Notes under the pieces: model-generated
The model's input: only the letters and a program-made list of their open reading frames with translations
What the model was told of the DNA's origin: nothing
The model's database searches: none
Part shown: in pieces, positions 21,811 through 64,000 of the stretch
Position numbering within the stretch: position 1 is the first letter of the stretch
Layout: each line of letters opens with the position of its first letter
Position numbers and translations under genes: made by a program
Origin: a virus
Lineage: Duplodnaviria; Caudoviricetes
Length of the DNA stretch: 64,000 nt
Strand: one strand, 5' to 3'
IMG/VR virus record: IMGVR_UViG_3300020352_000805
Coordinates: 2,616-66,615 of that record

Positions 21811-24800
21811 ATGTCCGATAAAATTAATTTTAGAGGTGATAAGAATAGACCACTAACACAAACCGAATTAGATAATAATTTTCGTTATTCAAACGAATGG
21901 AAATCAGGTACATCATATACTCAAGATATGGTTGTATTATATGATGACGGAAATGGACCATATTTCTACAAATCAAAAAATGACCATCAATCAACTACTT
22001 TTAACCCTCTTCAATGGGATAAAATTGGTGTTGGAGGTTCAGGAGTTCCAGGAGTTCAAGGGGCAACCGGAGCAACAGGAATTCAAGGTGCAACAGGAAC
22101 AACGGGTCCGATTGGTGTAACCGGAGCAACCTCAACGATTGCTGGTGCAACAGGAACAACTGGTGCAACAGGGTCACAAGGTATTCAAGGTATTCAAGGT
22201 ATTCAAGGACCGGCATCAACGGTTCAAGGTCCACAAGGTGCAACTGGGGCAACTGGATTTGGTGTGACCGGAGCAACTGGGGCAACTGGAGCACAAGGTG
22301 CAACCGGAGCAACATCAACTGTTCAAGGACCACAAGGAATACAAGGAATTCAAGGTTCGGATGGAAAAGGATTGAGAGGTTTTAGTACAACAGCATTTGC
22401 ATTAAACAATACCGGAAGTATAATTATAACAGTAAGACCAAACATAAGTGCAGATAATAAAACATTGGCATTTATGCCAGATGGATATATACACATTGCA
22501 AAAACATCAGCAACTTCACAATATCAAATTTCAAAAATTGTAAATTACGATGAGGTTTCTGGACAAATGACTATAACATCACCGGTTTATTTATCACCAA
22601 GTGCAAATACAACTGCTGACAATGATTGGATATTAAATGCATCTTCTTTACAAGGTCCAACAGGACCACAAGGTGCAACCGGAGTCACTGGTGCAACTGG
22701 GTCAACCGGACAACAAGGAATTCAAGGTGCAACAGGACCTGGAGTTGGAGCAACAGGAGCACAAGGGCCAATTGGACCGACAGGAGCCGATGGATTGCCA
22801 GGAAATGATGGAGCAACAGGACCAACGGGAGCAGATTCTACGGTTGTAGGACCAACAGGAGCAACAGGAGCAACAGGAGCAAACGGTTTAAATGGTGGAA
22901 TTGGAGCAACAGGACCGATAGGACCAACAGGAGTAACAGGACCAACAGGACCCGTATCATCATTGAGTATAAATTATTTTGATATTACATCAACAAATGG
23001 AATTTCAGGTTATTTTGATATACTTGAAGATTATCCTTCAACCGCAACGACTACCGATATAACGGTTGCAACAACGGCTGCATTAAGTCCAGTTCTAATT
23101 AAAAGTTTTGCTTATGCAAAATCATTCGGTGATTTGAATTTAACAACTTTACAATCTGGAATTTTTAAAGCATTATTATTTGGTAAAACAAGTAATGCGG
23201 CAGTGGTAAACAATTTTAAAATAGAAGTAGGAATTATAACAGCTGCATTGGCAAAAACTATTATTGCAACTGGAAATAGTTCTTTTATAACGGGCACAAC
23301 TGTTCCGCAACAAACAACAGCAGAACTTGTACATCCATTAGATTATGCAGTATCTACTACCGATAGATTATATGTAGATATTTATGCTGTAACAACAGAC
23401 ACTAATAGTGTTAACTTAACTCTTAGTTTTGATAGTACTTTGGCACCATCAAGAATAGGAACACCGATTCCAATTTCAGAAAAAGGTGCAACAGGACCAC
23501 AGGGTTCAACTGGGGCAACAGGAAGTGTAGGTTCAATTGGTGCAACTGGAGCACAAGGTATTCAAGGATTACAAGGACCAATAGGTTCAACCGGTCTTAC
23601 TGGTGTAACAGGGCCAATAGGAGTAACAGGAGCACAAGGATTAATAGGAGTTACGGGACCAATAGGTTCAACAGGAGTAACTGGTTCACAAGGAATTCAA
23701 GGTGTAACCGGAGCAACTGGAGGTGTTCAAAATTGGCAAAATGTCGTAAATCAAACTTTTCAAGGTGCAACCGGAGCAAGTGCTGGTTCTTCAACAATTT
23801 TTGTTAACGACCCAAATATTTCCGGAGCAACGGGACCGAATCCTAATAGAATTCAAATTAAAGGTGGACCAATAAGTGTAGTTGGTGCAACGGGAGTAAC
23901 CGGTGCAACGGCTAATGGATATTTTAAAACTGGATTTGAAACAAACATAAACGGAGTAACAGGAAATCATTTTACTTTAGATGCATATTCACAAGACAAT
24001 TTAGGTGTTCAAAAAAGAATTTATTTAGGTACAAATTTCAAAAATACATCACCTCCGACACATACTGATATAAATCGTGGACCTTATCTTTCGAATTATA
24101 ATGCAGACCTTTCTAGTGTAGCCGGTGGTGGAATAGCGGGATTAAGAGAATTTGATTTGGGTACTTATGACCAAGACGGTTTAGAAGCACAAGAAAGAAC
24201 AAGATGGCAATACTATAATTCAACAAATAATTATAGAAGAATTGAAATGACTAGACCGGGAGGAACTGGTGGTGCCGGAATTAAATTAGTAAACACAGAA
24301 TCTCAATATCTATTTAGTAAATTAATGTTAAATAATTTACTTTCTGGTGTAGGTTCGTTTGGTATATATGGTCAAAGTGGCATTTCAAGAAAAGGTGAAA
24401 TAACTTACGATGCAACAGCGGGAATCAAGTTAACTCAATATACACATTCAAATAGTTCATCATTTGCTAATGAAAGAACATCAATTAGTGTAGATTCTTT
24501 GTATGTAAGTGCAACAGTAAAACCAGAATTAGGTTCTGCTGGATATTATAGTGGAATTTCTGCATCGTTTCAGTTGACTGATAATAATGTTAGTTTAAAA
24601 GCTAGAAGTGCATCTGACCAAATACAATTTACTATGGTTGGGGCATCAGGTGCAATTAGTAATATTGCACAATTTACTGGGGCAACAGCAAATGCACAAG
24701 TTAAAACAAATGGTAACTATTGGGCATCAAATGTTCCGGCTGGTGCAACAACTGATTCAAGAGTTTTGGTTGTTGATTCATCAACAGGAGAATTCAAATA

Positions 24801-25224
24801 TAGAACCGATATATCAGGTGGTAGTAGTACACCAACTTTAAATAATGGACAAATATATGTAGGTGATGCTTCAAATGCTGCTACTTCAGTAGCAATGAGT
24901 GGAGATACTACAATAAGTAATACAGGAGTAGTTACTATTGGAACTGATAAAGTTACTTACGATAAAATGCAAGATACAACTCAAGCTTGTATGTTAGGTA
25001 ATCAAACTGGTGCTGGAACGGTAGGAGAAATTCCTATGGTTGAAGCATATATACCAGCAGGAACAGCAAGAACTTTATTAGAAACAACTACTAATTGGGA
25101 TGTAAACGGAAACTATACAGGAGCTTCAATATCTGGAACTTTTCAAGGACAAGCACATTACAATGGAAATTATTGGTTTACAGCGGTAGATGATAATGTT
25201 TGGATAAGATTAATTAGAGGATAA
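21811..25224 (+). CDS. Collagen-like tail fibre/virion fibre protein
   Basis: [13 protein letters not shown]-terminal anchor-type motif, three Gly-X-Y tracts rich in GAT/GPT/GxQ, beta-rich C-terminal region. Confidence 0.8.
22042..23724 (+). repeat. Three collagen-coding 9-bp-period repeat tracts (about 22042-22380, 22654-22956, 23485-23724)
   Basis: Imperfect GGN-GCA-ACN and GGN-NNN-CAA units encoding Gly-X-Y. Confidence 0.85.
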
Positions 25225-27160: not shown

Positions 27161-29509
27161 ATGAGTGCTACACCAAATATAAATCTTTTAAAGATACTAG
27201 GAAATAAATTCGATGCAACTGCAGCACCGACTGTAAATGATGATAGTTCTGCTGGTTATCAAGTAGGTTCAAAATGGATAGATGTTACAAATGATAAAGC
27301 ATATAATTGTGTTGATGCAACAGCCGGAGCAGCCGTATGGAATGAAGCCGGTGGTGGAGGTTCTAGTATTTATACCGCGGACGGTACTTTATCAGGCGCA
27401 AGAACTGTTGATTTAGATGCTAATACATTAACTTTTGACACTGATACCGGTGGACAAATAAGGTTAAATAGAAGCGATTTTAGTTCAACAGATATATTTA
27501 AAGTAATTGGATATACCGCAGGTGGTAATTTACCGTTTTTTAAAATTGGAACTTACGGGCAAATTGAACTAATGGGGCGATTAAATGCAAGTGCATTTAA
27601 AGTTTACAAATCGGGTTCAACAAGTGAAGTTTGCTTTGATACCGGTGGAAATAATGGCGGTGGATTTATAGGAAAAGGAATAGTAACTATCGGCGAAAGC
27701 ACAAGTTCTTATGCGTACCGAAATCAATCGACATCATCGTATTCATTTAATCGTTGGTACAGAGGCGGTAACATTGAACATTGTTTTAATTTTGATTCAA
27801 GCAATCCTTTATCATTTACAGGCTTTTATATTAATGGAATTGGAAGTGATTTTTTTGTAGTTGGTAGTGATTCACAAATAGGAAGTGAAAACATATCATT
27901 ACAAGGTAACACTCTTATTAAAGGTTCTGACAATTCAGCAAGTACAAGTGGGTTTAAGTTTATTGATTCAAATAATGATTCTAAATGGGATTTTAGAAAT
28001 AACGGAGATGTACTAGTAGGTCAAAATGTTAATATCGTAGGTGATTCTAATACACCAGCTACTTTTACATTTTGCAGACCAGCAAACCCATCTGGCTACG
28101 GAGCAGGCTTCAATATTGATATGCATAACTCAAATAGTGCTCAGACAACTTATGGGAGATTTGTATCAATAATTGAAAGTAATACAGCTGGTAGTGAAAC
28201 AGGGCGAATGGAATTAAGAGTTGCAAATAGTGGAACAGTAACTACAAAATTAACCGTTAATACTGGTGGAATTGTAGTAGCTGGAAATACTACTAGTGAA
28301 TCTACAAGTTCTATTGCAGCTTTTATTGCAAAAGGAGATGGTTCATCACAAGATGGTTATATTCAGCTAAATTGTTGGAATAATAATCACGGTATAAAAC
28401 TTAAATCACCACCACATTCTGCAGCCGCAAGTTATACTTTAACATTTCCAAACGATACCGGTTCTAACGGACAATTTTTGAAAACTGATGGTTCAGGAGT
28501 TCTTTCTTGGGGAGCAGCTGGTAGTTCAAGTCCATTAACAACAAAAGGAGATTTATATACATATGATACTGCCGATACAAGATTACCTCTTGGAACTAAT
28601 GGTCAAGCTTTAGTAGTTGATACTACGGAAGCAACAGGATTGAAATATGTAAACATATCAGAAACACCAGCCGTAGGTGGTGGGTTACTTGTTGACTTAG
28701 GAATGGCAAATACCAACCAAGCTATTACCGTGGCTGCAGGAGCAACTATTATTAATTTTGATGATACTGTAACAGGAGCTATAGATAAGAACGGTGATTG
28801 GGATAATACAAATAAAAAGTTTGTTGTTAGTTCAACAAGTGGTAATGGAACTTATCAATTTGAAGTTAATTTATTTAGTCAAAATAGTACTGCTGCATAT
28901 TATAATTTACAAGCATTTGTTAATGGAAGTATAAAAACACCAAATGGTGCTTTTGCTATGACAGATGCTGTTGATGATTCAGGTTTTGACGGAGTAGCTG
29001 GAACTATTTCACTTGATTTAGTAGTAGGTGATGAAGTTGAAATCAAATTACAATCTTATCAAGCAACAACAACTATTTTAGGAAATGGTACTTGGAACTT
29101 TACACAAGGTATGAGAATATCTAAGGCTTCAGGTATTAAAGGAGATAAAGGAGACCCAGGAACAGGAGCCCCAGTTTCTTTAAGTAAAACATTTACTTTA
29201 CAAGAACCAACAGCTTCTGATGATATTACAGTTTTTAGAACGGATGTTGCTATAACAGTACAAGAAGTAATTGCATGTTCAACTGGAAGTTCTCCAAGTA
29301 CAACTTATCAATTAAAACATCATACTGACAGAAGTAATGCCGGAAATGCTTTAACAACAAGTGCTGCAACAACAAGTACAACAACAGGAGACACTGCTTC
29401 ATTAGACGATGCTACTATTCCAGCAAATAGTTGGGTTTGGATAGAAACAAGTGCCGCAAGTGGAACAAGTGTTTATTTAAGTATTGACATAAGATATACA
29501 GAAGATTAG
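27161..29509 (+). CDS. Mosaic tail fibre/spike-like protein with C1q-like domain
   Basis: [19 protein letters not shown]-terminal motif, S/T/G-rich beta regions, [25 protein letters not shown]1q-like segment, short collagen [10 protein letters not shown]. Confidence 0.6.
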
Positions 29510-29528
29510 TAAATAAGATAAATTAGAT

Positions 29529-29924: not shown

Positions 29925-29947
29925 TTTAAAATAATAATCGACACAAA

Positions 29948-30232: not shown

Positions 30233-30233
30233 T

Positions 30234-36594: not shown

Positions 36595-36596
36595 AA

Positions 36597-42488: not shown

Positions 42489-42854
42489 ATGGGCGCAACC
42501 GATATATACATAAGAAGACCACAACGTTCTTTATATAGTGAAAAAGATATAGAAATCAACGATATGTTAACTATGTTTTTGCAACAAATAGAAATGGTTT
42601 TATCAACACCACCTTCAACAGTTTTAGGTAGAGCAGATTTCGGAGTTGGATTGCGTTCTTATTTATGGGATTTTAATGTAGGTGAAAGTGAATTAAAACA
42701 AGCTATAAATGAACAAATAGGATTAAATTGCTCATTATCAGGGGAATTTAGTTATAAAATAGATGTTCAATTCTATGAAGTAGGTAATAGTGATTCTGCA
42801 ATTATTGATATAACCGTAGAAGATGACAATTTAGTTAGAATGGTCATCAATTAA
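42489..42854 (+). CDS. Baseplate wedge protein gp25-like
   Basis: QIEMVLSTPPSTVLGRADFGVGLRSYLWD; immediately upstream of gp6. Confidence 0.75.
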   Translation: MGATDIYIRRPQRSLYSEKDIEINDMLTMFLQQIEMVLSTPPSTVLGRADFGVGLRSYLWDFNVGESELKQAINEQIGLNCSLSGEFSYKIDVQFYEVGNSDSAIIDITVEDDNLVRMVIN

Positions 42855-49635: not shown

Positions 49636-51729
49636 ATGGCTACACCACTATTAAGACCTTTACGCACACAAGGTGGAACAATTTATGTTTTTAACAGTGC
49701 AGCAAATGATATTGCAAAAACTTTTAGTGATGATAATGTTAGATTTACATTTAGTAAATTTGCAGCTTTAGATTTACCTAAAGTTAATATTCCAAGTAGT
49801 AATTCTAACAATATAGTTTGGCAAGCATTAGGAAACAGAGCAAATACTACCGGAGCAACTGCTTGGAGTAGTAATACGGTTATTACCGATTTACTTGGTG
49901 TTAATCAACAACAAAATACATATATTGCAAATAGTTTTCAAAATTATGTTTTGAACTGGGAAAACATAGTTCTTAACAAACAAAATTCTCTTGGTAATTT
50001 ATACGATACAACTACTAATCAATCAGTAACAGAAAGAATATTTTGGAAATGGTTGGCTGATTTAGGTGCAATAAGATTTGATAATGCAACTTTGAATGTA
50101 GATTCAAATGTTGCTAATATGTTTGTAGAAGAAGGACAAAATACTACCGATTCTAGCAAAGATACTTATAATAGGGTAGTAAAATATTTAGGTGATATTG
50201 ATTTGATTAACAATGTCAATAGAGGTGGAGAAGCATATACACAAGTTTACTTACATATGCCATCAGAACACGGAAACACACCTACGGTTTTGTTTAATAC
50301 TCTTTCTGATGCTAATTACAATACTAATATACAATGGTCAGGTACAAATGGAGATGACATCGAAGGTAGAACTGCAGCCGCAGACCCGAGAATGTCAATC
50401 AATGCATATTTTGCCAATAGTACAAGTGATTATTATACAACAGAAAATACATTTGGTGCAACAGCAAATACGACTATAAAAGTTGCAACCGATTTAAGTT
50501 TTACTAATCAATTTAATGTAAAGGTATCCAATATGGATGGTGCAATCATTGATTGGGATAGTGCAAAATATACTAAAGTAACAAGTAATGCAAGTGTAAA
50601 TTCTATTGCAGAATTAAATGCAACAGCAGAAGCTGAAAATTTTGCTTTCAATACCGTATTACTTTATTATGATATTTTTAATGAATCGGATGGTTCTCTT
50701 GTAAAAAGAAACCTTTATGGTGTTTTGTTTATTGATGATTTCGAAGAAACTATAAGTGCAGGTTCAGAATTAAAATCGTTTTCTAAATTTAAACCTAATC
50801 CAATAACTAAATTAAACGGAAATGCATATTCATTAAAAACAAATATAAAATTTGATACTAGTGCTGATAATGTAGGTGTAGAAAGAAGTATAAATGAATA
50901 TTCAACATTTTCTATGGATTTGTTTTCGGACGCAATGGTTCAATTACAAGATGCAACAGAAAATTTTGTTACTCAACAACTTTCAATATTAGATATAACT
51001 ACTAAAGTAGATAATTTAGAAAAGTTTTATTTCAATCAAGCAACTATTGATGAATTGAATGCTAAAATTACTGCACTACAAACCTCTGTACAAAATTCAT
51101 TAATTGCATTAGAAAGTCCTACTACTATAATTGAATTAATTAGAAATAATAGTACAAGGTTAAACAAATTGGCAGCTGGGGAATTAACAAGTGATTTATC
51201 TTATGATTTAAGTCCTTTCGTACAAGGACCTGGATTGAAATTAGATAAATCCGTTCCTGATAAAGTAATACTTAGTAACGTAGTTCAAAAATATAACTAT
51301 TTCCCTGTATGTTATAATGTTTCAAAAAATTTGAATTATACATCCGGAAATGGGATAACAGATACAACTTCAGTTTCTTATAGTACAAAAAACAATATAA
51401 TTAATTTAGGTCAATTTACGAATTACTTTAAGAATGATTCGACTGAAAGTTTAAATATAGACAATGATGTTATTATAAATATAGATGATACGGTTGAAAA
51501 ATTTCAAACCGGTCAAGTTTATAGAATTGTTTTTGATAAAGGTTTCTCATTAGCAAGCACTAGAAATCTGTACATATATACAGATGCCGAAAATAAAAGA
51601 AACTTAGGTTCATACAAATGGTTAATGACTAAATTAAGTAATGTTGATTTATCAGGAACTAGACCTATAATTGAAATAATTTGTACAAATGCCAATACGT
51701 ATTCATTTACAATTGACATTTTAAGATAA
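49636..51729 (+). CDS. Virion structural protein (baseplate/tail region)
   Basis: 697 aa, N/T/S-rich, central coiled coil; position. Confidence 0.55.
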   Translation: MATPLLRPLRTQGGTIYVFNSAANDIAKTFSDDNVRFTFSKFAALDLPKVNIPSSNSNNIVWQALGNRANTTGATAWSSNTVITDLLGVNQQQNTYIANSFQNYVLNWENIVLNKQNSLGNLYDTTTNQSVTERIFWKWLADLGAIRFDNATLNVDSNVANMFVEEGQNTTDSSKDTYNRVVKYLGDIDLINNVNRGGEAYTQVYLHMPSEHGNTPTVLFNTLSDANYNTNIQWSGTNGDDIEGRTAAADPRMSINAYFANSTSDYYTTENTFGATANTTIKVATDLSFTNQFNVKVSNMDGAIIDWDSAKYTKVTSNASVNSIAELNATAEAENFAFNTVLLYYDIFNESDGSLVKRNLYGVLFIDDFEETISAGSELKSFSKFKPNPITKLNGNAYSLKTNIKFDTSADNVGVERSINEYSTFSMDLFSDAMVQLQDATENFVTQQLSILDITTKVDNLEKFYFNQATIDELNAKITALQTSVQNSLIALESPTTIIELIRNNSTRLNKLAAGELTSDLSYDLSPFVQGPGLKLDKSVPDKVILSNVVQKYNYFPVCYNVSKNLNYTSGNGITDTTSVSYSTKNNIINLGQFTNYFKNDSTESLNIDNDVIINIDDTVEKFQTGQVYRIVFDKGFSLASTRNLYIYTDAENKRNLGSYKWLMTKLSNVDLSGTRPIIEIICTNANTYSFTIDILR

Positions 51730-51762: not shown

Positions 51763-54700
51763 ATGTCAGACGTAAAGAATAGTTTAAGTTCAATTGTGGA
51801 CAATCTTATAAAACTACAAAGAAACAACACCGAAATTTTAACAAAACTTTCTGCGGTTGTTAATAGTGATGCAGATGTAGTAACATTAACTTTAGAAGAT
51901 ATTGCAAATGACAATATCAAAACAGTAACTATTCCAAGTTTCGGTGCCTTAAAAAAAGATATCGAAAGACTTGATGAAAACATAACGCAAATATCAGCAT
52001 TGAATAATAAAGATGCTAGTGTTCAATTACCGGACGGAACTTTTAGAACTATTGTAAAATCTACACTAAAGAAAAGTGCTGATGATATAGTAAAAGTTCA
52101 AACACCTACTGGTTTTAAATCTAAAAGTAATTGGTTCTTTGAATCTTTCTTGAATCCTTTATTGTATGTTGGATTAAATTTTCCAACCCAGTTAGACCCT
52201 GATACAACAAAGGTTAAAATGCAAAAGTTTATTTTGAATCTAGATACCGAAGCAAAATTAAATATTTTCAATTTGCAAATCAAGAATAATCCTGATTTGT
52301 CTTATGCAGACTTTTTAGACCTTATCAATACAAATGGTATTTTATATACAATTGATGATGATGTTTTAGACTTACCACCCGTAGAACCTAGATTTTACGG
52401 AAACTTTTCTGTATTAAGAGTATTTGAATCAACAGAAAATATAGTAGTTGATGGTGTTGATACTACCAAGAAAACGCAAAAGTTTCAATTAGATAAAATA
52501 ACCTACAATGATAAAAATTCTAGTACTTTAGAAACTCAACAATTAAAAGTTGGTGATTCTTTACTAGTTAATAAAAATGATAAAAGTACAAGATATAAAG
52601 TTACGGGAATAGATTTCGAAACATTTACGATTTCTGTTATTCTTGCAGAAGGTTATGATTCAGTTAATATAGGGGCTGATAATTTATCTTTTTATCCTGT
52701 TGAAGCAATATCACCAGAAATTAGAGTTGGAATTGGATTCAACGAATACCTTTCTGTATTTTTAAAACCTATAAATCCGGATTCAAATAGACCAGCTGAT
52801 AACTATTCTCCTGGAATTAGTTTTTATTCTAATGAATTGACAATAAAAGACACGGATAGTGTAGTTAAAACATTAGATACTTACTATCAAGAAAAAGTAG
52901 TAGATTTTGGTGCCGTTTTATTTTCTATGACACAAGAAAATATTCCACCAGTTTCAAAAGCAATCGTTCCAAATGTTCCACAAGCAGTAGTAAACGATTT
53001 TAAAGTTGTTCAAATTAACAAACATGCAACTGACGGACAATCTAACGAAGATATTAAATCACTTAATAAAGAAAAGTTATCATTAAAAAGTGAACTAGGA
53101 GATTTAGACAAAGCAATTTCTACGAAAAGACAACAAATTTCTACTAAGAATTATAAGTCAGACATTGAAAGAGATTCGGATAACAACCAACTACAAACTT
53201 TAATAGAAAAAAGAGCTGCAACCGAATCACTTTATAATTCAGTAGTTTCTGATATTCTAACAAAAGCAGAAGATAAAACAACTTCAACTGCCAATGCAAA
53301 ATATAGAGTTAGAGGTTTTTGGCCTTTACCTGAAAATAGAATTGCAACCGATGGTTCGGAACAAAGTGTAATTCAATTTAAGATTCAATATAGATATCTT
53401 ACAAAAGGAGGTGCTGCAAATAATTTACAAGAATTTGACTTTTCGGATGCAGATGGAAATACTCAAAAGGGAGTTTATTCTAATTGGGTTTCTATGAAAT
53501 CGCCTTTAAGAGAAAGATATTTCGATGCTGATACCGGTAGGTATTATTGGAAAGAACAAGATACTGAAAACGGAGAACAAGTTAATATAAATCAACTTGA
53601 TATTCCAATTAGACCAAATGAAACAGTAGAAATAAAAATAAAATCACTTTCGGAAGCTGGTTATCCAGCAAATCCTATTGAATCTGAATTTTGTAATATT
53701 ATATCTATTGAATTTCCAGACGATTTGGGTATTTCTAAAGATATTTTATCAATTATTGATGAAACTAACAACGAAAAAGTAAAAGTTAGGTTAAATGAAG
53801 ATTTAACTGAAAGAGGAGTTTATACTCATATCAATGACCAATTTGTTCAAAATAGTATAACTTGGAAACACCAATCGGCAAATATTGCTTCTGGTTTTCT
53901 TTCCGAAGAAAGAAATGTAATTAGTTTATTAGATTACTTGAAAAGTTTAGAAGATAAAATTTCATCTTTAGAAGCACAAATAAATAAGACCGTTGGTATT
54001 TTACTTATTAAAGTAGAGGATGAAAGTGGTAATCAAAAAATTGTTCAAAATAATACAACAGTTCCGATTTTTGCCGGAAACTATAAAGATGAAGTTTCTT
54101 CTTTGGATGAACCTAAAGGAACTATAATAACTAAAAACTATTTTATTAGAATAGAAAATGATGCTGCAACACCTATTCAATTATCGGCTGCTTTAAAAAG
54201 TAATGTTTCATCATTGGCTTTTGATAATGATGGGAGTAAATTTGAACAAGCTTCAACTCAATATAGTACTTTACCATCTTTGGGATTAAGTAATCCAGCA
54301 AATGAAGATATTACTAATCCCAATCATACTGCTTATAATTTACCTTATCAGAGTGCACAAGTAAAAGGTCAATTTATATATTCAAGGGGTAGTGATATTA
54401 CTACTACCAAAGACCTTTTTGAAGCACCTAATACTATTTTAGGTAATATGCATAGATTTGAAAATAATATTTCGACAACAACTATTAATAACTATAAAGT
54501 AAATAGTAATTTCTTTATTTGGGATGGTGTTCAAACAACATCGGGCGTTGTTAATGGTCACGAAGCAAGTACTGTAACCTTTGACCCTAATCAAGTATAT
54601 GTACATTGTCAACATCCGGATTTATTCAATACAAATACAATAGTAAATGATGAATGGATAGATAAAAACACTTCTATTTCAAGAGCTAGCAATCTAAATG

Positions 54701-55218
54701 TTTTTGCCAACCCAACAGATTTTTATAAACAAACTGCCTTTGGTCAAGGTTCGATAGGTGCTATTACAGATACTACAAATAAAATATCTTTTCAAGAAAA
54801 TGATAAATATTTATTAGGTGAACGTTCTTGTGGTTGTTATTTATACCTAAGTCCTTTAGGATACGAAAATATTAGAGTTGAAGGAAACGATAAGATAAGT
54901 AAAAAAGAATTATCACTTGGGAGTTCAAATGCAATTGTTTTACAAGTTGTATATCAATATAGAATGACAGATTATTTTGGTGCTGGTAAATTAGGTATAG
55001 GTAAAATATCAGGAAAAGATGGTATTACTCAATTAGAATATAGAAAAATTTTAGGATTAGATTTATATTATGATGAAAGTAAATTTTCTTTTGATATCGA
55101 AATAACATCAAGATACAAATCTAATTCTATTAGTGCATCAGATGTTCCGAGTTCGACATTTCAAAATACTATAAATCAAACTACAAATAACGTAAATCAA
55201 ATTACACCTAACATATAG
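51763..55218 (+). CDS. Large virion structural protein with coiled coils and FN3/Ig-like segments
   Basis: 1151 aa; heptad regions; ETVEIKIKSLSEAGYP FN3-like strand. Confidence 0.5.
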   Translation: MSDVKNSLSSIVDNLIKLQRNNTEILTKLSAVVNSDADVVTLTLEDIANDNIKTVTIPSFGALKKDIERLDENITQISALNNKDASVQLPDGTFRTIVKSTLKKSADDIVKVQTPTGFKSKSNWFFESFLNPLLYVGLNFPTQLDPDTTKVKMQKFILNLDTEAKLNIFNLQIKNNPDLSYADFLDLINTNGILYTIDDDVLDLPPVEPRFYGNFSVLRVFESTENIVVDGVDTTKKTQKFQLDKITYNDKNSSTLETQQLKVGDSLLVNKNDKSTRYKVTGIDFETFTISVILAEGYDSVNIGADNLSFYPVEAISPEIRVGIGFNEYLSVFLKPINPDSNRPADNYSPGISFYSNELTIKDTDSVVKTLDTYYQEKVVDFGAVLFSMTQENIPPVSKAIVPNVPQAVVNDFKVVQINKHATDGQSNEDIKSLNKEKLSLKSELGDLDKAISTKRQQISTKNYKSDIERDSDNNQLQTLIEKRAATESLYNSVVSDILTKAEDKTTSTANAKYRVRGFWPLPENRIATDGSEQSVIQFKIQYRYLTKGGAANNLQEFDFSDADGNTQKGVYSNWVSMKSPLRERYFDADTGRYYWKEQDTENGEQVNINQLDIPIRPNETVEIKIKSLSEAGYPANPIESEFCNIISIEFPDDLGISKDILSIIDETNNEKVKVRLNEDLTERGVYTHINDQFVQNSITWKHQSANIASGFLSEERNVISLLDYLKSLEDKISSLEAQINKTVGILLIKVEDESGNQKIVQNNTTVPIFAGNYKDEVSSLDEPKGTIITKNYFIRIENDAATPIQLSAALKSNVSSLAFDNDGSKFEQASTQYSTLPSLGLSNPANEDITNPNHTAYNLPYQSAQVKGQFIYSRGSDITTTKDLFEAPNTILGNMHRFENNISTTTINNYKVNSNFFIWDGVQTTSGVVNGHEASTVTFDPNQVYVHCQHPDLFNTNTIVNDEWIDKNTSISRASNLNVFANPTDFYKQTAFGQGSIGAITDTTNKISFQENDKYLLGERSCGCYLYLSPLGYENIRVEGNDKISKKELSLGSSNAIVLQVVYQYRMTDYFGAGKLGIGKISGKDGITQLEYRKILGLDLYYDESKFSFDIEITSRYKSNSISASDVPSSTFQNTINQTTNNVNQITPNI

Positions 55219-55961: not shown

Positions 55962-58900
55962 ATGGCGAAGGTATTTACAAACAAAACATCATATTCTTTA
56001 TTAAAAACTAATCCTAAACTTACAGGAAATATCAAAATGGTAGTTGATAGTAAAGGAGATATTTTTATTGAAACTATTGATGCTAGTCCAGAACTTACAA
56101 GAAACAAATACAAAAAGGTTAAATTAGACTTAGAAAATAGTTGGTCTAGTTCAATTTATAATTTTTTCAATAAAGGTTCTATACCTAAAACACTTTTATA
56201 TGCATTAAAAGATGTTGAAGATTTCTATTCTATAAAAACAGATTTTAGTAAACAATACTATACTGATTATCAACAAGGAATAAAACCAAAGATTTCTAAA
56301 TTATATGATGAACAAATTTCTTATTTTGCACCGATATGGTTAGAACCGAATGACATTCCTGAACATTTTGCAATTTTCAAGATACCCGAACCAGTTTCAG
56401 TTTCTACGAAAAACGAAGAAAATTCTTTCAATGCTGATATTGAAAAACAAATTTACGATGCTAACTATTTTGATACTTTTTCAGGAGCAACTGCTAGTGA
56501 TTATTTTTTCAATACTGTACTTTCTAAGGCAAAATTACATAAAGTTTTTGACTTAGGAGCTGATTCTACACTAGGTAAGTATTTAAGAAATCATATAAAT
56601 GATGTAGAAATGCCAGAAAGTTCTTTGACTATTGATTGGAATATAAATTCTAATAGTACAGTCAACGGTATTTCATTAGAAAAAAGTGGGTTTACAAAAG
56701 AAGCAATGGATATGTTTAGTGAAGCATTTCCGGTAGATAGAACAGTAACTGAATTTGATAATTATATTACAAATCAATTTCAAAATAAAGGAGTTGTACA
56801 CCCTAATATCATAAATTTAGAATTTTTATTTGATGATGAAGAAGATGCTGATTTTACGGTCAATAGATATTTCGGAATATATTTCAATAAAAATGATATA
56901 TCTAAGTTCAATTTAGATAGTAAAGCATTTTATGATAAAAAATACGATAATATAAAACAAAACAAGGATATTGAATCTGTTTCTTCCGTAGATGTTCTTT
57001 CCGATTCTAATATTGTATTAGAAAATAAAGATGGAATAAAATTATTTGTAGATTACGGAACAGAATATAATGTACCTAGTTCTGATATAAAAGGAAGTAA
57101 CTTTTTACCTTATGTTTATTCAACAGATAGAAAATTTTACGATTTAGAAAATAATTTAGATTGGCAAAGTAATGAATTAATTCTAAAAGATACTATTATA
57201 AACACAAGAGATTTCAAAGGGTTTACAAAAGATAGTGTAGGTATAATTCCTTCGACCAAAACAAATAAGTCAGGTAGGTCTTATTTCGAATTTAAAATTA
57301 CAGGAACTACAAATTCATTTGAATTAAGAATAAAAGATGTAGATGAATATAAAACTGATTTTAATCTCAATCAAGTTTTTGTAGGAAATACGGGACTTAC
57401 AAGAGGAACTTTTGATGGAAACCAATTTTCTTTACAAGGAACACCGGATGAAGTTGCAAATGCAATAGTTTCTGCAATAAATTCATATTCGCAAATAGAT
57501 GAAGACTTCAATATTAATGCAATTGCTAAATTTGATAAAGTTGTTGTATTTACCAGAGGTATTAATGAATATTGGAACAAATACAAATACTTAATTTATA
57601 GTGATGATATTAATTTTCCTAATACAATTGATGTTCCTTATAAAACTTTTGATAATCTTGTAGATTTCAATACAAAAAGAGGAACAGGGTTTTCATTTTT
57701 AGATTATAATTCAGTTGTTGCTGGTGCAACATCTATGTTTATTAGTTCAGATTTTAGTATATTAGAAAGTAATTTAACGAATGGAAATAATGAAAGTAAA
57801 AATAAGATAAGAATTCCTATTGAATTTACTAGTTATTTTAATACATCTTTATTTCTAAAAACACAAACTTGGTATTCTAAAATTGTTTCGATTGATGCAT
57901 ATTTAGATGAACCCGTTTATGAAAATGGTAGAATCGTAGATTTTACAAATTTCGATAGTTATAAAACTATAAATTGTACAGGAGATGTTTGGGTATCACC
58001 GGGTGCTTATTCTGAATTATATGAAATAGAAACTAACAAAGTTGGATTGATGTCTATGTATCCAATTAAACAATTTGATTATGACCAATTTAGAAGTGAA
58101 TACGGAAAGGATGGTGATGGTTATATTGAAAAATTAGATAAACAATATTGGCAAAAAGGTGGAACAAGTACGAATACTTCAGGAAATCCAATCTATCCAG
58201 ATGCAAATAATATTCAATTTTCAATAAAAAATTTTAGAGACACAGGATTTAAAAGACTAACAGGAAAAATAGATGAAGTAACTGGTGACATTCCGACTAT
58301 TACTAATGAATATGATAGACTTTCGGAAAATGGGTTACCGGAATTATCCATAAAGGGTAGAATTATACCTTATATCAATAAGTGGGTTTATGATGACGAT
58401 GGGAAAGATGTTAGAGAAAATAATTATAGAATGACTAGTAATAGTGCATTTAGTTATGATAATTTTTCTCCTTCATCCAAAAATGTTTTACCTGATTTTA
58501 GATTCTTTACACACGAATGGTACTATCTACAAAAATATCCATATTACTTAACTACAAAAGAAAAAATTGAATCATTTTCATATTTTGAAAATGCAATAGA
58601 AAAGGGTAGTTATGCAATAGGTGCTACAAATAATTTAGGAGTAAAAGATATAACAGAAGATAAATTTTTAGAATACTTTACGGAATATAAAGTAGGAAAT
58701 TACTATTTTCCAGCAAAAAGAAAATATTCTATAATAAGTGGAGGTAACGAAGATTCTTTTGGGGAAACTTTTTTTAGAGGAACTAAAATAAAATTCAAAA
58801 GAAGGGTTGAAAGTGATACACCACTAAATTCTAATATAGAAAACATAGGAGTTTTTAAAAGTGATGAATTCAACGGATATAAATTTAGTGCTATCTTAAC

Positions 58901-60629
58901 TAACAATACCGATAATGCATTGAATTATTCTATAATTGAAAACAAGAAATATAAAACTATAACTATGATTATAGAAGCTCAGTTGCAAGATTATTACTTG
59001 AACTATGATAATTCAGGAGCAACCGGAGCAACGGCTTTACATTTAGATAGAAGTTCATTATATGTTTTAGAAGATAAATTTGATAGTACAGGAAATTATG
59101 ATGATGTTGAATTAAGTGGTTCAATATCTCCGTTTATAGAAGATGGAAGTATTAATATTGCTAATTTTACAAATGATGGTACTTTTTATACAATAAATGG
59201 TACTCAAAATACTGCAAATAATTCTATACCTAATTTCATAAATCAAATTGTACCGACTACAAACGGTAAATACGAAAAAATATTAATAGTAGTTCCTGGA
59301 GGAACATTAGAAATAGATGAAATAGGTTCTGTAACTAAAAATACAATAAAAGCTAAAGAATTTAATTTTATAACAGGAACGGGTTCTACACCGATACCAA
59401 ATATACATGATTCTACTTTACCTTTTCCAAATCAATGTTTGGATAAAATACCTATATATCAAAAAGGTGGGTATAATGCATATAAAGGTTTAATAAATGA
59501 TATAAGTTTTGCAACTATATTTGACAAGGTTAATTCAGGAAGTCCTGATATTAATTATATTACGGTAGATGAAGTAGGTGGAACGGCAATAGGTGCTACA
59601 AATACATTCCTAATAGAATTCGAAGATTATTCTACGAATGTAAAAGCTGATTACATAACCACTGAACCGATTATATTTAACGGGTTAGCAAATACTAATT
59701 TTGAACCAATAGGTTCTAAAACAATAGGTTTGAATAGTACTTATTTTTCAACTATGTTTAGATTCAATGGAAACTACAATCCAAAGGTTAATGATGTAAT
59801 ATACTTTAGTGAAGATTTTGATACAAAATTTACAGATGCAATAAGAAAACAATTAAGGTTTACTAATACAAATTTCTTTAGTACTTATCCAGGTTTTGGA
59901 TTGTATAAACAATTATACATAAATAAAATTAACGAACAAAACCCTTTAACTATATTAGATTTAAACAAAGAAAGTGCGTTAAGACCGGAGTTTTGGAAAG
60001 TAGGAGAAATTTCTATTGATAAACAAGATTCTTATATTTTTAGAAGTTGTTGGGACCATAATTTTCATAAAAGATACGAAAGTAAAACCGATTTTACAAG
60101 TTTTCCGGGATATATTGAACCTAAAGAAGTAGGAAGTTTTTTAGCATCTACAATTATGAATATACCTGATGATGTAAAAATTGAAAAGTACGGTTCTTCA
60201 AATATTGTTATTGATACAAATTCTAACAATGTTATTTCAGGTCAAATAAAAAATACACAAGAATTGATTGATAAAATTAATCCAAGTTTAAAACCATTAT
60301 TTGATAAGTATGTAAATAGTTCTTATAACTTTCAAAAACTAGATACCTTAGATGATGATATCGAAAGATACATAAAAACAAATATTTTACCTAGATATTT
60401 TTCAAGGGAAATATATGCCTATGTAAAGTATAGTTCTAAATTATCAAATGAACCAGTTTTAGAAACAAGTAAAACCGAACAAGAATTAATATTAGATGGA
60501 TTTATTAGATTGGAAAACATAAGTTTTGTTCAACAAAAATTTAATGATTTTGATTTCAACTTTACTTATAATAAACCAAGTGATAAAAATGTAACTCTCG
60601 CTTTCATTACTAAAGTAACTACGGTTTAG
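55962..60629 (+). CDS. Very large virion structural protein (baseplate-associated)
   Basis: 1555 aa; N-terminal SYSLLKTNPKLTGNIK; position among structural genes. Confidence 0.55.
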   Translation: MAKVFTNKTSYSLLKTNPKLTGNIKMVVDSKGDIFIETIDASPELTRNKYKKVKLDLENSWSSSIYNFFNKGSIPKTLLYALKDVEDFYSIKTDFSKQYYTDYQQGIKPKISKLYDEQISYFAPIWLEPNDIPEHFAIFKIPEPVSVSTKNEENSFNADIEKQIYDANYFDTFSGATASDYFFNTVLSKAKLHKVFDLGADSTLGKYLRNHINDVEMPESSLTIDWNINSNSTVNGISLEKSGFTKEAMDMFSEAFPVDRTVTEFDNYITNQFQNKGVVHPNIINLEFLFDDEEDADFTVNRYFGIYFNKNDISKFNLDSKAFYDKKYDNIKQNKDIESVSSVDVLSDSNIVLENKDGIKLFVDYGTEYNVPSSDIKGSNFLPYVYSTDRKFYDLENNLDWQSNELILKDTIINTRDFKGFTKDSVGIIPSTKTNKSGRSYFEFKITGTTNSFELRIKDVDEYKTDFNLNQVFVGNTGLTRGTFDGNQFSLQGTPDEVANAIVSAINSYSQIDEDFNINAIAKFDKVVVFTRGINEYWNKYKYLIYSDDINFPNTIDVPYKTFDNLVDFNTKRGTGFSFLDYNSVVAGATSMFISSDFSILESNLTNGNNESKNKIRIPIEFTSYFNTSLFLKTQTWYSKIVSIDAYLDEPVYENGRIVDFTNFDSYKTINCTGDVWVSPGAYSELYEIETNKVGLMSMYPIKQFDYDQFRSEYGKDGDGYIEKLDKQYWQKGGTSTNTSGNPIYPDANNIQFSIKNFRDTGFKRLTGKIDEVTGDIPTITNEYDRLSENGLPELSIKGRIIPYINKWVYDDDGKDVRENNYRMTSNSAFSYDNFSPSSKNVLPDFRFFTHEWYYLQKYPYYLTTKEKIESFSYFENAIEKGSYAIGATNNLGVKDITEDKFLEYFTEYKVGNYYFPAKRKYSIISGGNEDSFGETFFRGTKIKFKRRVESDTPLNSNIENIGVFKSDEFNGYKFSAILTNNTDNALNYSIIENKKYKTITMIIEAQLQDYYLNYDNSGATGATALHLDRSSLYVLEDKFDSTGNYDDVELSGSISPFIEDGSINIANFTNDGTFYTINGTQNTANNSIPNFINQIVPTTNGKYEKILIVVPGGTLEIDEIGSVTKNTIKAKEFNFITGTGSTPIPNIHDSTLPFPNQCLDKIPIYQKGGYNAYKGLINDISFATIFDKVNSGSPDINYITVDEVGGTAIGATNTFLIEFEDYSTNVKADYITTEPIIFNGLANTNFEPIGSKTIGLNSTYFSTMFRFNGNYNPKVNDVIYFSEDFDTKFTDAIRKQLRFTNTNFFSTYPGFGLYKQLYINKINEQNPLTILDLNKESALRPEFWKVGEISIDKQDSYIFRSCWDHNFHKRYESKTDFTSFPGYIEPKEVGSFLASTIMNIPDDVKIEKYGSSNIVIDTNSNNVISGQIKNTQELIDKINPSLKPLFDKYVNSSYNFQKLDTLDDDIERYIKTNILPRYFSREIYAYVKYSSKLSNEPVLETSKTEQELILDGFIRLENISFVQQKFNDFDFNFTYNKPSDKNVTLAFITKVTTV

Positions 60630-60686: not shown

Positions 60687-63600
60687 ATGGCAAATATACA
60701 CATAAAAGAATTATTCGGTTCTGATAACATCACAGATTTAACAGAAAAAGTTAATTTTAATTTTGACCAATTAATATTGGCCGGAGGTGGACCCGAAGGT
60801 CCGATTGGACCAACGGGAAATAATGGAGTTTCTGGACCTGAAGGAGTAAGAGGTTCGCAATGGGTAGCCGGAAGTGGGGCAACTACGATTAATTTACCAA
60901 CAGACGGAGTTTATAGAAAAAATGACTTTTTATTGAATGATGGTGGTAGTTTTGTCGGTGGTGCAACTGGTCAAGTATGGTACTACGGAGCAACCCAATG
61001 GTTTGATACCGGAATTAACTTAATAGGACCACAAGGACCACAAGGTGATGTTGGTGATGGTTCTATTAATATATTAGGTGGATATTTACAACAAGTAACA
61101 AATATAGATTCACCATTTAATGCATTTGTACCTAATTTTGGTTCTACAAATCCAACACCTACCGGTGACACTTATACACTTGGTACATATTTATCACAAA
61201 CGTTTTCTAAAGACAAAGATGACTATTCTACTAATGGAAATTTTATAAACGCTGGATTAGATTTTATAGGAATAGGAAGGGGAAATAATTCACTTGTTTT
61301 AGGTAGATATGCAACACTTTTTCAATCAGGTTCTGCTGGAGCAACATATTCACCACCTGGAAGTAATAAAGTAATGAAGAATTTTCCTCAACTAGAGGCT
61401 GATGTTCCTATGCTTTTAATTTCTCAAAATGATTACAAAAATCCTTCAACTGGTTCCCCAACTTATTCTAATGGAATTTCAATAGGTTTAACAAAAACAC
61501 ATCCAGATGCTTCTTATGGTTCTGGAGACCCATATAGTGGTCAAGAAATGGATTATTTTAAAAATGCAAACATAAGTATAGAAAATAAATATCACGATTT
61601 AAAAATTAGTTCATCTAATTTACTTTCTCTACAATCTGTTTCTGGTGCTGGTGGATTTTTTAGATTAGGTTCATCTACGGTTAGAACCGGTTATAATAGT
61701 GTTGATTTTCGTTCTACTAAATTACAAACGGTTGCATATACTAATTTCAAAATTAGTGATAGTTTTTTTATAGATTTATCGGATTCTACTGGAAGTGTTA
61801 GTACTAATGAATTAATACATAATGCCCAATCTACTTTCTTTCAAAATTCTAAATTTTACGTATCGGATGCGTCTACTACCGATAACGATACTCGACAAGA
61901 AACTGCAAAAACTTTTATCGGAACAAGAAATGATACTAGTGGAAAAATAGGTGCTAACGAATTAGTGTTTTTTAATGGTGATTCGCTTACAACCGATGCT
62001 GATGATAAAACCATTTCCAAAACACTTGACCCAACTACATCTGGGTCTACACCTTCCGATTTTAATACACGTTCTATATTCGATTCAGATAATAAAAATT
62101 TTGTATTTAGAATCGGTCAAACTACTGTACAACCGGGATATATGGAAGGTGGTACTACTGGTGAACCTATTTTAAAAAGTGGATATAGTAATAAAATAAA
62201 TATAACTTATCAAGGTCAAGGATATGATACGCCTTTTATACAATATTCTGGTATAGATATATTTAACACATATAACAATTCTATAAATAGTGGCACATAT
62301 GACCATTATTCTCCATATGCGACTATTCCTAATAATTCTACTTTATCACAAGCATTAGGTTACGATATAAGAGAACCGTTGCAATGGAATAATACTAATA
62401 ATAAAGAAGGTTCAATATCAATGACTAGAATGGGTATTTATCCAGGATTTTTTAGAAAAGATAAATCAAGTAATACCTATATCGGTGATTCTAATGCAAG
62501 ACAAAAGAAATTCTTTGATGTTGCGCATAGAATGATGCCAACTGGTTCATTGGATGTTTTCGGAACAGTAAGAATAAGAGAACAAGAAACAACAGATAAT
62601 GGTGCAAAAGATGGATGGATTGCTGTAAACAAAAAAGATGGTATTATAGGATTCCAAGAACCATCACAAGCAAGTTCAACACCTACATTTTCTATTATTA
62701 TGTTTCCAGAAATGGCATCAAATAAATTTAGTTTCTATATAGAATCAAGTAAACAATTTGGAGCATCTTCTGCACAAGTTGGAGACGGAAAAGCATATAA
62801 CTATGTACCACCAATAGGAGGTACATCAAGACCACCTTTTGCAGCATTTCCAGGAAAAGGTTCTGATGAATTAAAAGATTACTATATTTGTAATGGTGCT
62901 GTACTTGCCGATTCTAGAGATTGTATTGCAACAGGACCATTTTCAAAGATGAAAGGAATGAATGTTTCTGCTGATAATGGAAATAGTAAAGTTCAAAATG
63001 GAACATTGGTATCATCAGGAACACCTAGTGATTATGATTATGAACCTAATCCAGATTTTATAGGAATTAATGGTGCAACACATGGTTCGTCTCCACAAAT
63101 ACCAGCAAGTGCTGGAAACTGGACTGATTATGTATGTGATTTTTTTAATGGTATGGGTTCTATGAGCAATTCATTAGGTTCTTGGGGTTGTAGTGTTTTA
63201 GCTGGTGAACTTGCGGATTCAAAATTTAGAATTATTTTACCTAATTATTTTGGTAGAGTTGCAAAAATGCAATTCCCAGATTCTGATTTGATGGTAAGGG
63301 CAATTTCGGGTCATAAATTAGATAAAAATCAACATTTACAAGGTGCATATACTGCTTCTGGTTATCCAAATGGAGAAGAAAGAGATAGTGGATATATTTA
63401 TCATAAAGCAAATGGAAAATATAATGCTTCTTGGATGATGAAAGGAATGTTTGATTCGGCTGGATTTCCTTATCTAAGTGGTTCACAAACCCCTAAGATG
63501 GCAATGCCTAAACATAGACACAAATCTGGTGCTTTGATTACTGATTCACATGTTCAAGGAGACCATAATCACTCAGTATCTATTGATACTAATGATGATT

Positions 63601-64000
63601 CTAATGGAGGTTCTAATACTTCTGAAGGTGCAACTACCTCGCAAGGTTCTTTTAATTCCGGACAAGCTGGTGGATTTACACATTCTCACGTTGTTACCGG
63701 TACTACTGACTATACTGGAGATTTTGCTATATCTAGTAATCCGAATCCTGACAATGACTATGATATAGAACATTATTATGTTACAGGAACTGGATTTAGT
63801 AATAATCAATTTCTCGTAGTAGGACATTTCGGATATGATATTTTCGGTAATGATGGATTTAATGTTAGTCCATCAATTCAATATTCTAATTTTAGTAACT
63901 GGCTAAATTACAAGAAAAGTGAACTTGTAGATAGTGATGAACAAGCAAAGGCTGATTCATCAGGACAAAAATTTATTACAGCACCATTTAAAGGTACTAT
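60687..64000 (+). CDS. Tail fibre/baseplate fibre protein, over 1100 aa, runs off the window (absent from the ORF track)
   Basis: ATG 60687 MANIHIKELFGSDNITDLTEKVNFNF; short collagen tracts; collar-like YYICNG...LPNYFGR and MPKHRH; frame spot-checked open through ...SGQKFITAPFKGT at the end. Confidence 0.75.
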   Translation, partial: MANIHIKELFGSDNITDLTEKVNFNFDQLILAGGGPEGPIGPTGNNGVSGPEGVRGSQWVAGSGATTINLPTDGVYRKNDFLLNDGGSFVGGATGQVWYYGATQWFDTGINLIGPQGPQGDVGDGSINILGGYLQQVTNIDSPFNAFVPNFGSTNPTPTGDTYTLGTYLSQTFSKDKDDYSTNGNFINAGLDFIGIGRGNNSLVLGRYATLFQSGSAGATYSPPGSNKVMKNFPQLEADVPMLLISQNDYKNPSTGSPTYSNGISIGLTKTHPDASYGSGDPYSGQEMDYFKNANISIENKYHDLKISSSNLLSLQSVSGAGGFFRLGSSTVRTGYNSVDFRSTKLQTVAYTNFKISDSFFIDLSDSTGSVSTNELIHNAQSTFFQNSKFYVSDASTTDNDTRQETAKTFIGTRNDTSGKIGANELVFFNGDSLTTDADDKTISKTLDPTTSGSTPSDFNTRSIFDSDNKNFVFRIGQTTVQPGYMEGGTTGEPILKSGYSNKINITYQGQGYDTPFIQYSGIDIFNTYNNSINSGTYDHYSPYATIPNNSTLSQALGYDIREPLQWNNTNNKEGSISMTRMGIYPGFFRKDKSSNTYIGDSNARQKKFFDVAHRMMPTGSLDVFGTVRIREQETTDNGAKDGWIAVNKKDGIIGFQEPSQASSTPTFSIIMFPEMASNKFSFYIESSKQFGASSAQVGDGKAYNYVPPIGGTSRPPFAAFPGKGSDELKDYYICNGAVLADSRDCIATGPFSKMKGMNVSADNGNSKVQNGTLVSSGTPSDYDYEPNPDFIGINGATHGSSPQIPASAGNWTDYVCDFFNGMGSMSNSLGSWGCSVLAGELADSKFRIILPNYFGRVAKMQFPDSDLMVRAISGHKLDKNQHLQGAYTASGYPNGEERDSGYIYHKANGKYNASWMMKGMFDSAGFPYLSGSQTPKMAMPKHRHKSGALITDSHVQGDHNHSVSIDTNDDSNGGSNTSEGATTSQGSFNSGQAGGFTHSHVVTGTTDYTGDFAISSNPNPDNDYDIEHYYVTGTGFSNNQFLVVGHFGYDIFGNDGFNVSPSIQYSNFSNWLNYKKSELVDSDEQAKADSSGQKFITAPFKGT

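Follow-up and report, generated by a model that had tools for sequence, protein, structure and literature searches.

Described systems and the Gly-Ala-Thr tripeptide

Threonine residues within Gly-X-Thr triplets are O-glycosylated in collagen-like spore proteins, among them BclA3 of Clostridioides difficile, the substrate of SgtA, and BclA of Bacillus anthracis (PMC7157674). SgtA, the product of the gene directly 5′ of bclA3, transfers O-linked N-acetylglucosamine (O-GlcNAc) onto the Thr of Gly-Pro-Thr triplets, those in short peptides included (PMC7157674). Because SgtA acts on short synthetic peptides, a triple helix is not needed, and isolated triplets are possible acceptors in principle. 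Here we examine the tripeptide Gly-Ala-Thr (GAT) in 64 kb of a 66.6-kb contig of a tailed phage (Duplodnaviria; Caudoviricetes), IMG/VR record IMGVR_UViG_3300020352_000805, positions 2,616 to 66,615. This stretch of 64,000 nucleotides (G+C content ~29%) is referred to below as the window, and coordinates without a further label are positions in it. An earlier reading of its letters and open reading frames (ORFs), hereafter the sequence-only reading, had proposed that GAT is a surface-loop tag throughout the virion, read by a phage enzyme, most simply the encoded glycosyltransferases (GTs), or else a docking site for a decoration protein.

The window resembles the SgtA/BclA3 system in that its GT genes (19620-20989) lie 5′ of a collagen-like gene (21811-25224) and in that the putative acceptor is rich in Gly-X-Thr: its 109 Gly-X-Y triplets include 24 GAT, nine GIQ, eight GVT, seven GPI, seven GPT and four GST. 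The prevailing triplet, however, is Gly-Ala-Thr rather than Gly-Pro-Thr, and isolated sites are scattered in non-collagen virion proteins. The enzymes also differ in build, as SgtA is a GT-A domain fused to tetratricopeptide repeats (TPR), whereas the window GTs, known here from sequence alone, are of 227 and 229 amino acids (aa), with GT domains only and no TPR found by Pfam. As the dominant triplet of the collagen tracts, GAT recalls the bacterial collagen-like triple helix; unlike those tracts, the isolated sites are single triplets that remain (12 against 3.4 expected, see below) with uninterrupted Gly-X-Y runs masked and sites with Gly at −3 or +3 dropped as well.

Phage-encoded GTs also O-glycosylate virion proteins of mycobacteriophages, at the C-termini of capsid and tail-tube subunits (Freeman et al. 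2023, as cited in PMC12619734). The window shares with that case the phage-encoded GTs and the sites in structural proteins, here read from DNA only; unlike the C-terminal positions given in that citation, its sites lie within outer baseplate and fibre proteins, in internal loops. Among eukaryotic viruses, the N-glycosylation sequons of viral envelopes and the atypical sequons of chlorovirus capsids are over-represented on exposed proteins, and are gained and lost in loops rich in insertions and deletions (indels) while their number is maintained. The GAT sites of the window likewise turn over in variable, indel-rich loops at maintained number, although they are a Thr-containing tripeptide of a tailed phage and not an Asn-linked sequon. 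GAT also departs from the O-glycosylation sequon of Bacteroidota, D-(S/T)-(A/I/L/V/M/T), since Ala precedes its Thr; DAT occurs six times against 3.1 expected. General O-glycosylation in Bacteroidota acts in the periplasm, which assembling virions bypass.

Excess of Gly-Ala-Thr in the late proteins

The excess of GAT is real, strong and replicated. For counting, every run of at least four Gly-X-Y triplets was masked first. With collagen thus excluded, the late ORFs (25241-64000, 12,306 aa) contained 20 GAT against 3.6 expected by composition; this expectation, 0.29 per 1000 aa, agrees with the earlier estimate of well below 1. The excess held against shuffled controls, as block shuffles (20-100 aa) gave a mean of 3.7-3.8 and a maximum of 10 among 400 shuffles. 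GAT ranked first in enrichment among 4,524 tripeptides (Poisson p 2e-9), and the Bonferroni-corrected p for the window was ~1.6e-5. A first-order Markov expectation, in which the excess of GA and AT is already included, was 8.5 (p 5e-4). Each of the five permutations of GAT occurred 3-9 times in the late ORFs, where Thr followed GA in 20 of 67 cases. Within the window, GAS, SAT and other G-x-T tripeptides were at expectation, G-[PSG]-T occurred 13 times against 12.8 expected, and the broader motif [ST]-[GA]-x-T was rejected because it showed no enrichment after removal of GAT (23 against 20.5). An enrichment of GAV was confined to the window. The early ORFs together carried one GAT in 5,925 aa, which is the chance level; this site (codon 16017, in the ORF at 15663..16346, plus strand) is the only one 5′ of the fibre gene and is the lone non-structural match remarked on earlier. 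The window versions of NrdA, NrdB, TerL, the GTs and the amidoligase contained none, again as had been stated.

A motif at the DNA level was ruled out. The late region had the pattern GGN-GCN-ACN 20 times in frame 0, and no copy of it in either of the other frames or on its minus strand. All three codons of the GAT sites vary synonymously; this variation, together with the restriction to one frame, places the signal at the protein level, where the sequence-only reading had put it. The Ala codon was GCA at 16 of the 20 window sites, compared with a background of 57%, but the preference for GCA is common to Ala-Thr pairs (GCA in 47 of all 65, and in 31 of the 45 outside GAT). Vestigial or degenerate collagen was ruled out as well, since other collagen triplets were not enriched (observed-to-expected ratios of 0-0.9 outside collagen for GIQ, GVT, GPI, GPT and GPQ) and sites without nearby Gly still were. 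In twelve of the 19 isolated window sites neither −3 nor +3 is Gly, and when sites with such a Gly were dropped, 12 GAT remained against 3.4 expected (3.5-fold; shuffle maximum 8). Gly follows about one quarter of the isolated sites.

Location of the sites

The motif sits in those stretches of the outermost baseplate and fibre proteins that are variable, loop-like and rich in indels, all of these proteins being encoded on the plus strand, and every codon position that had been listed for these and the other late ORFs proved correct. Six isolated sites (56484, 57723, 58620, 59016, 59025 and 59592; 0.22 expected) lie in a 1555-aa outer virion protein (55962..60629) with phrog_31887 at its N-terminus. 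Another six (60876, 60960, 60987, 61338, 63072 and 63627; 0.54 expected) lie in the fibre-like terminal ORF (60687..63998), which is cut by the contig end and has N-terminal PHROG matches to phrog_26654 and phrog_1658. The gp7-like outer baseplate protein (44923..48345), encoded directly 3′ of the gp6-like wedge gene, has three (45439, 47785 and 47929) against 0.17 expected, and a 697-aa structural ORF (49636..51729) has two (49852 and 50455) against 0.22; around residue 73 of the latter, the same loop has GAT in relatives at 40% identity. A single site, at 48715 (residues 118-120), was found in a 174-aa protein (48364..48888) consisting of an N-terminal helix followed by a beta domain. Besides its GAT-dominated collagen tracts, the 1137-aa tail fibre (21811..25224) has six more GAT in its non-collagen C-terminal half (23764, 23824, 23884, 23902, 24679 and 24742), exactly the number that had been estimated by hand.

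Contrary to what had been supposed, the motif is not virion-wide. The core tail and baseplate block (29529-44685) holds a single GAT against ~0.8 expected, at 42492, residue 2 of a 121-aa ORF (42489..42854, plus strand) that starts Met-Gly-Ala-Thr. A 782-aa ORF (27161..29509, plus strand) shows no enrichment, with one GAT (28739) against 0.9 expected. The conserved 1151-aa ORF (51763..55218, plus strand; phrog_29329) has none and its homologues have 0-1 each, which provides an internal contrast among the large late proteins.

In the family of the terminal ORF (60687-60860, homologues L001-L012), a conserved N-terminal segment is followed by a short Pro-rich Gly-X-Y tract of ~12 triplets. This tract is kept even in the complete genome LR756500, so the family represents a trimeric fibre with a collagen stalk other than the GAT type. 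The N-termini of the 48364 ORF and the terminal ORF look alike to the eye, but BLASTP gave this likeness no support.

Distribution among relatives and controls

The GAT excess is a property of the clade and has no counterpart in the sister clade. Across the clade, outer baseplate and fibre proteins carry GAT at five to ten times chance, and in relatives of the 1555-aa protein, from 84% down to 30% identity, it is the top tripeptide outside collagen tracts. Observed and expected counts were 12 and 1.4 in locus L003, 7 and 0.8 in L005, 20 and 2.6 in L008, 19 and 3.8 in L009, and 11 and 1.6 in L011. The contrast between structural and non-structural proteins was borne out in G007, a 294-kb relative (91% complete), where the structural-gene bins held 46 GAT against 13.4 expected (rank 1, p 3e-12) and the non-structural part (60-180 kb) showed no excess, with 4 against 7.2. 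The suggestion that relatives might use a different signature tripeptide found no support, as GAT was on top in every GAT-rich relative tested.

Controls behaved differently. In 80 unrelated phage loci, to which the small subunit of ribonucleotide reductase (RNR) had led as a probe and which served as the negative control set, the observed-to-expected ratio was 1.15. The sister clade had 13 GAT against 10.2 expected, and LR756500 (462 kb), which contains no long collagen-like ORF, had 23 against 16.8. In far subclades G-P-T, G-S-T and G-G-T were also enriched, 2-3.5-fold singly and 2.2-2.6-fold as the class G-[PSG]-T, whereas in the window GAT stood alone.

The gp7-like family comprised 724 members at E ≤ 0.001 among 1.84 billion representatives. 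GAT was the top tripeptide in members such as P0011 (11 against 0.8) and P0061 (9 against 0.46), whereas P0001 and P0002, the nearest 50% representatives of the gp7-like protein, had none; no IMG/VR relatives were found for the GAT-rich gp7 homologues P0061 and P0057. In the panel of loci with gp7 homologues, GAT ranked first in L099, L101/L108, L102/L107 and L104 and second in L110; L096, L100, L103 and L116 were intermediate, and L109, L111-L115, L117 and L118 showed no excess. In a tree of the gp7 N-domain, the GAT-free loci L012, L109, L111-L114 and L117 form a well-supported clade of their own, L115 and L118 sit on long branches, and the window group is sister to the P0001 subclade (L096-L098), in which GAT is only 2.2-fold enriched.

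A different tripeptide, Thr-Trp-Asp, was on top in ten of the top 150 gp7-like representatives (P0009, P0016, P0076, P0079 and others; up to 9 against 0.2 expected), as it was in loci L097 and L109. A repeated domain in which this motif is conserved is the probable source.

Anatomy and turnover of the sites

GAT is a short linear motif under protein-level selection, often in the form [Ser/Thr]-Gly-Ala-Thr-[Ala/Gly]. At the 82 non-redundant sites compared, the +1 residue was preferentially Ala (5-fold) or Gly (3.6-fold), and Ala was favoured two residues before the motif (4-fold). In the window, [S/T]-GAT occurred seven times against 0.7 expected, and GAT-[A/G] eight times against 0.6. A shared repeated domain was ruled out, as the flanks of 152 non-redundant sites had no common profile. 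The surroundings of GAT were less conserved than the rest of the same proteins (0.43 against 0.50, p 6e-6) and more gapped. An AlphaFold2 model of the 174-aa protein (21 sequences) was of moderate quality, with a predicted local distance difference test (pLDDT) score of 71, and placed the GAT in coil right after the strand 112-116; Foldseek returned no PDB match to this model at E ≤ 0.001. In the model of residues 801-1300 of the 1555-aa protein, which was poor (pLDDT 45), four GATs fell in coil or low-confidence stretches. Neighbouring sites in the subclade of G007 were clustered (8 gaps of ≤15 aa against 2.5 expected), and in G007 itself some recurred every 10-13 residues between strand-like stretches.

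The positions themselves are short-lived. In six protein-family alignments, ~25 GAT columns of the near subclade and ~30 of the far subclade showed virtually no exact overlap; the family of the 1555-aa protein alone had 24 columns, none of them exactly common to the two, and in the terminal ORF family five of ten columns were private to the window. In some loops both subclades had a GAT, though not in the same place (columns 943/948, 985/989 and 1111-1115 in the 1555-aa family; 71-75 in the 697-aa family). Among loci L099, L104, L110 and L105, identical or nearly so in the gp7 N-domain, the 174-aa homologue contained 4, 3, 2 and 1 GAT, respectively. Sites were gained both by substitution (A-G-A-T-S versus S-S-S-A-S, column 625) and within small insertions, such as G-A-T-G-A-T in L001 at a site that is single-copy in the window, and a four-residue insertion of G-A-T-G. 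At relatives' sites the Ala codon was GCT, GCC or GCG in 29 of 82. An inherited tripeptide seldom survives to 30% identity, yet the excess is equal in both subclades, so a continuing force is needed. The excess is upheld by ongoing gain and loss of sites and not by site conservation.

Glycosyltransferases and other candidate enzymes

The two window GT genes, both on the plus strand, end 0.8 kb 5′ of the 21811 fibre. The first (19620..20303), which encodes a small DXD glycosyltransferase, matched PF04488 (DXD sugar-binding region) at 48.2 bits and PF12919 at 49.6 bits (cut-off 23.6), the best stretch of the latter covering just positions 1-50 of 382. Its PDB matches were SetA, TcdA and TcdB over 50-75 residues (E 2e-8 to 2e-5). 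The N-terminus of this GT resembles the TcdA/TcdB/SetA protein-glucosylating family. The enzyme is a candidate writer for the collagen fibre, but it does not co-vary with the excess of isolated GAT. It has homologues in the relatives G008 (47% identity) and G006 (34%) and is absent from G007. The second gene (20300..20989) encodes a GT2-family enzyme whose closest solved relative by sequence, at a weak E of 7e-5, is GmaR of Listeria, the flagellin O-GlcNAc transferase; a homologue 50% identical is present in G008 and none in G007. The closest solved relatives of both GTs are protein-glycosylating enzymes. Searches of IMG/VR found no close relatives of either the window GT or the 25241 ORF.

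Directly 5′ of the collagen fibre lies a 175-aa ORF (21266..21793, plus strand) with no family match, which adjoins the collagen-fibre gene in G007 and G008 too. G008 is syntenic with the window from 19.6 to 64 kb, from the GTs through the terminal ORF, and has its GTs and fibre in one block, ~8 kb apart. All four genes of the cassette at 19620-25224 (DXD GT, GT2, 175-aa ORF and Thr-rich collagen-like fibre) occur in G008, at 47%, 50%, 37% and 39% identity, and the cassette is a candidate fibre-specific glycosylation or assembly unit. The likeness of the GT pair to protein-glycosylating enzymes and the parallel with sgtA-bclA3 make glycosylation of the 21811 collagen fibre plausible. Thr is likewise frequent at Y in the collagen-like ORF of G008. 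In G006 the GT pair is located in an apparent sugar-gene cluster, with no collagen gene adjoining. G007 (L122-L136) has collagen-like ORFs at 27898-30855, 52373-55351 and 95725-96879, with Thr at Y in 42-59 of 71-84 triplets; Gly-Met-Thr is unusually common in two of the three (10-18 copies).

A larger GT2 of ~400 aa, resembling GmaR and SunS, was found in all four large clade contigs checked (G001, G006, G007 and G008; copies at L093:1477-2700, L131:1995-3212 and L138:8152-9348, both on the minus strand, and L147:1260-2438) and is absent from LR756500. Its best solved relatives were GmaR, a glycocin-type transferase (7msk) and SunS; the C-terminal ~250 aa had no Pfam match, and Pfam found no TPR. 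GT2-family genes were present in every genome checked, including GAT-free ones. Between two large outer-protein genes, a 198-aa ORF (55301-55897) matched the phage 2OG-Fe(II) oxygenase family phrog_61 (E 4e-11), with only a sub-threshold hit to DUF7952 in Pfam. It was rejected as the writer of GAT on account of its weak PHROG match and the lack of a homologue in G007 or G008.

What the motif may be

The best supported reading is that GAT is a selected short tag on outer virion proteins. The notion of a recognised surface-loop tag, put forward in the sequence-only reading, survives as far as the variable, loop-like segments and the clade-wide upkeep with turnover are concerned; the link to the encoded GTs is not supported. 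As to function, our best guess, a tentative one, is that a Thr-directed modification uses GAT as its acceptor or as the site it recognises. Since the Thr-rich collagen-like fibres of the clade have GAT as their most frequent triplet, the modification would act on the collagen-like tracts too. In its most plausible form, a phage GT would O-glycosylate the Thr of GAT in the cytoplasm, and the modified GATs would give the tail periphery a modifiable coat. It is rather doubtful that GAT is a true sequon of a cytoplasmic, phage-encoded Thr O-glycosyltransferase, with the same enzyme serving the collagen-like fibres and dozens of outer loops and with a sugar-coated tail periphery throughout the clade. 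Such a coat would evolve through gain and loss of sequons, like the glycan shields of enveloped animal viruses.

Several results weigh against modification of the tag. No enzyme examined tracks the GAT excess. G008 has both window GTs and the collagen fibre, yet GAT reaches only 2.2-fold in its subclade, whereas G007 is rich in GAT and, at 91% completeness, has neither GT; the window pair is thus a poor correlate of isolated GAT, and the claim that the encoded GTs read the motif is not supported. The ~400-aa GT2 was rejected as the writer because full-length homologues (31-33% identity) occur in LR756501, LR756502 and LR745206, which lack the excess; in 40-kb regions around their 1555-aa homologues, GAT numbered 3 against 1.9, 0 against 1.2 and 2 against 1.1, respectively. 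The gp7 tree fits a single origin of the excess (a strict GAT-positive label needs at least three changes), and the co-occurrence of the excess with collagen fibres or GTs at the level of clades then amounts to one evolutionary contrast. The further flanks of the sites carry little information, which leaves room for a structural preference. One of the two AlphaFold2 models, finally, was poor.

A clade-specific structural preference is a serious rival, if on balance an unlikely one. GAT would then be favoured as a turn or strand start in beta-rich fibre and outer baseplate folds, serving folding or trimer assembly with no reader. Many sites do lie before or after predicted strands, the spacing in G007 and the clustering in its subclade have the look of such a role, aligned residues in relatives are frequently G-x-T, Thr is taken over Ser (GAS is not enriched in the window), and G-[P/S/G]-T is raised 2-3-fold in far subclades. 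A turn preference should be general, however, yet homologues in the sister clade, LR756500 and the P0001 subclade show no such excess. The mean hydrophobicity profile, flat around 152 non-redundant sites, also speaks against it, as do sites that are no more conserved than their surroundings and wander within loops, and the lack of any enrichment of the G-x-T class in the window when GAT is left out. We consider it quite unlikely that GAT instead serves for docking to, or recognition by, a partner that is not an enzyme, such as a chaperone of fibre assembly, a decoration protein or a ligand on the host surface to which many weak G-A-T loops would bind. The distribution would be the same as for a tag (outer proteins only, clade-specific, turning over at maintained number), and the conserved 175-aa ORF has the collagen fibre as its neighbour in G007 and G008 as in the window; but three small residues offer little binding energy, flanking specificity is limited to Ala/Gly at +1, and no candidate partner was identified.

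Pieces of collagen DNA of the form GGN-GCA-ACN might have been copied or slipped into late genes at loops that tolerate them, a mutational by-product that would account for the sites found in small insertions or tandem copies, for the standing of GAT as the commonest collagen triplet and for the frequency of GCA at the window sites. The frame test largely refutes it, because a 9-base insertion is frame-safe in any phase, yet no copy of the 9-mer lies out of frame or on the opposite strand. Other abundant collagen triplets are not enriched, many gains came about by substitution (as in column 625), other Ala codons are common at relatives' sites, the bias towards GCA extends to all Ala-Thr pairs, and G008 has a similar collagen gene with little excess; we therefore regard this origin as very improbable. 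Chance or a compositional artefact can be given almost no credence. The tripeptide was chosen after looking, and patches rich in Gly, Ala and Thr do exist (in 150 gp7-family representatives the permutations of GAT averaged 64 against 42 expected), but the corrected p from the window alone is small, local shuffles never attained the observed count, and replication in relatives, where GAT independently ranked first in at least nine other loci at mostly different positions, refutes the explanation.

If the selected tag is indeed a modification site, glycosylation of phage tail proteins would have its first defined acceptor sequon in GAT, and the sequence of an uncultured phage would be enough to predict such sites. 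The motif would also matter for host recognition, for the stability of particles and for how phages escape binding or degradation in the environment. Whatever its mechanism, the pattern is a rare one in phage proteins: clade-wide, an ordered tripeptide tops the outer virion proteins and keeps reappearing at new positions, and the sister clade lacks it. What it indicates is a specific factor, open to testing, by which Gly-Ala-Thr is read.

Genomic context and minor observations

The early region of the window encodes TerL, the large and small subunits of RNR, an N-formylglutamate amidohydrolase, a GNAT protein and an ART-PolyVal ADP-ribosyltransferase. Located 3′ of these early genes are the two GTs, the 175-aa ORF and the 1137-aa collagen-like tail fibre, followed by a baseplate block with a hub-like protein, the gp6-like wedge and an amidoligase. 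The final row of genes encodes large outer proteins: gp7-like (44923), 48364, 49636, 51763, 55962 (1555 aa) and the terminal ORF cut by the contig end. Capsid and tail-tube genes fall outside the window.

The best relatives are IMG/VR fragments whose CheckV completeness of 17-26% points to genomes of about 300 kb; further removed are LR756500, the Tenacibaculum phages PTm1 and PTm5, Sphingomonas phage PAU and the Lak phages. The GAT-bearing clade consists of ~300-kb jumbo phages, kin of Tenacibaculum phage PTm1 and the Lak phages, and from these relatives its hosts are presumably Bacteroidota. These relatives are in keeping with the jumbo phages of aquatic Bacteroidota that PMC12619734 describes, a resemblance rather than a lineage assignment.

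Within the baseplate cluster, the ORF at 40373-41683 is an amidoligase (PF12224) fused to a pentapeptide-repeat region, and the N-formylglutamate amidohydrolase is encoded at 13139-13912 in the early region; the two could act as a peptide-ligation or tagging pair. The early, non-structural proteins of the window (1-21800) have a top over-represented tripeptide of their own, Leu-Asn-Glu, with 14 occurrences against 2.3 expected. The same tripeptide was again on top in the 60-180 kb part of G007, with 34 occurrences against 9.8 expected.

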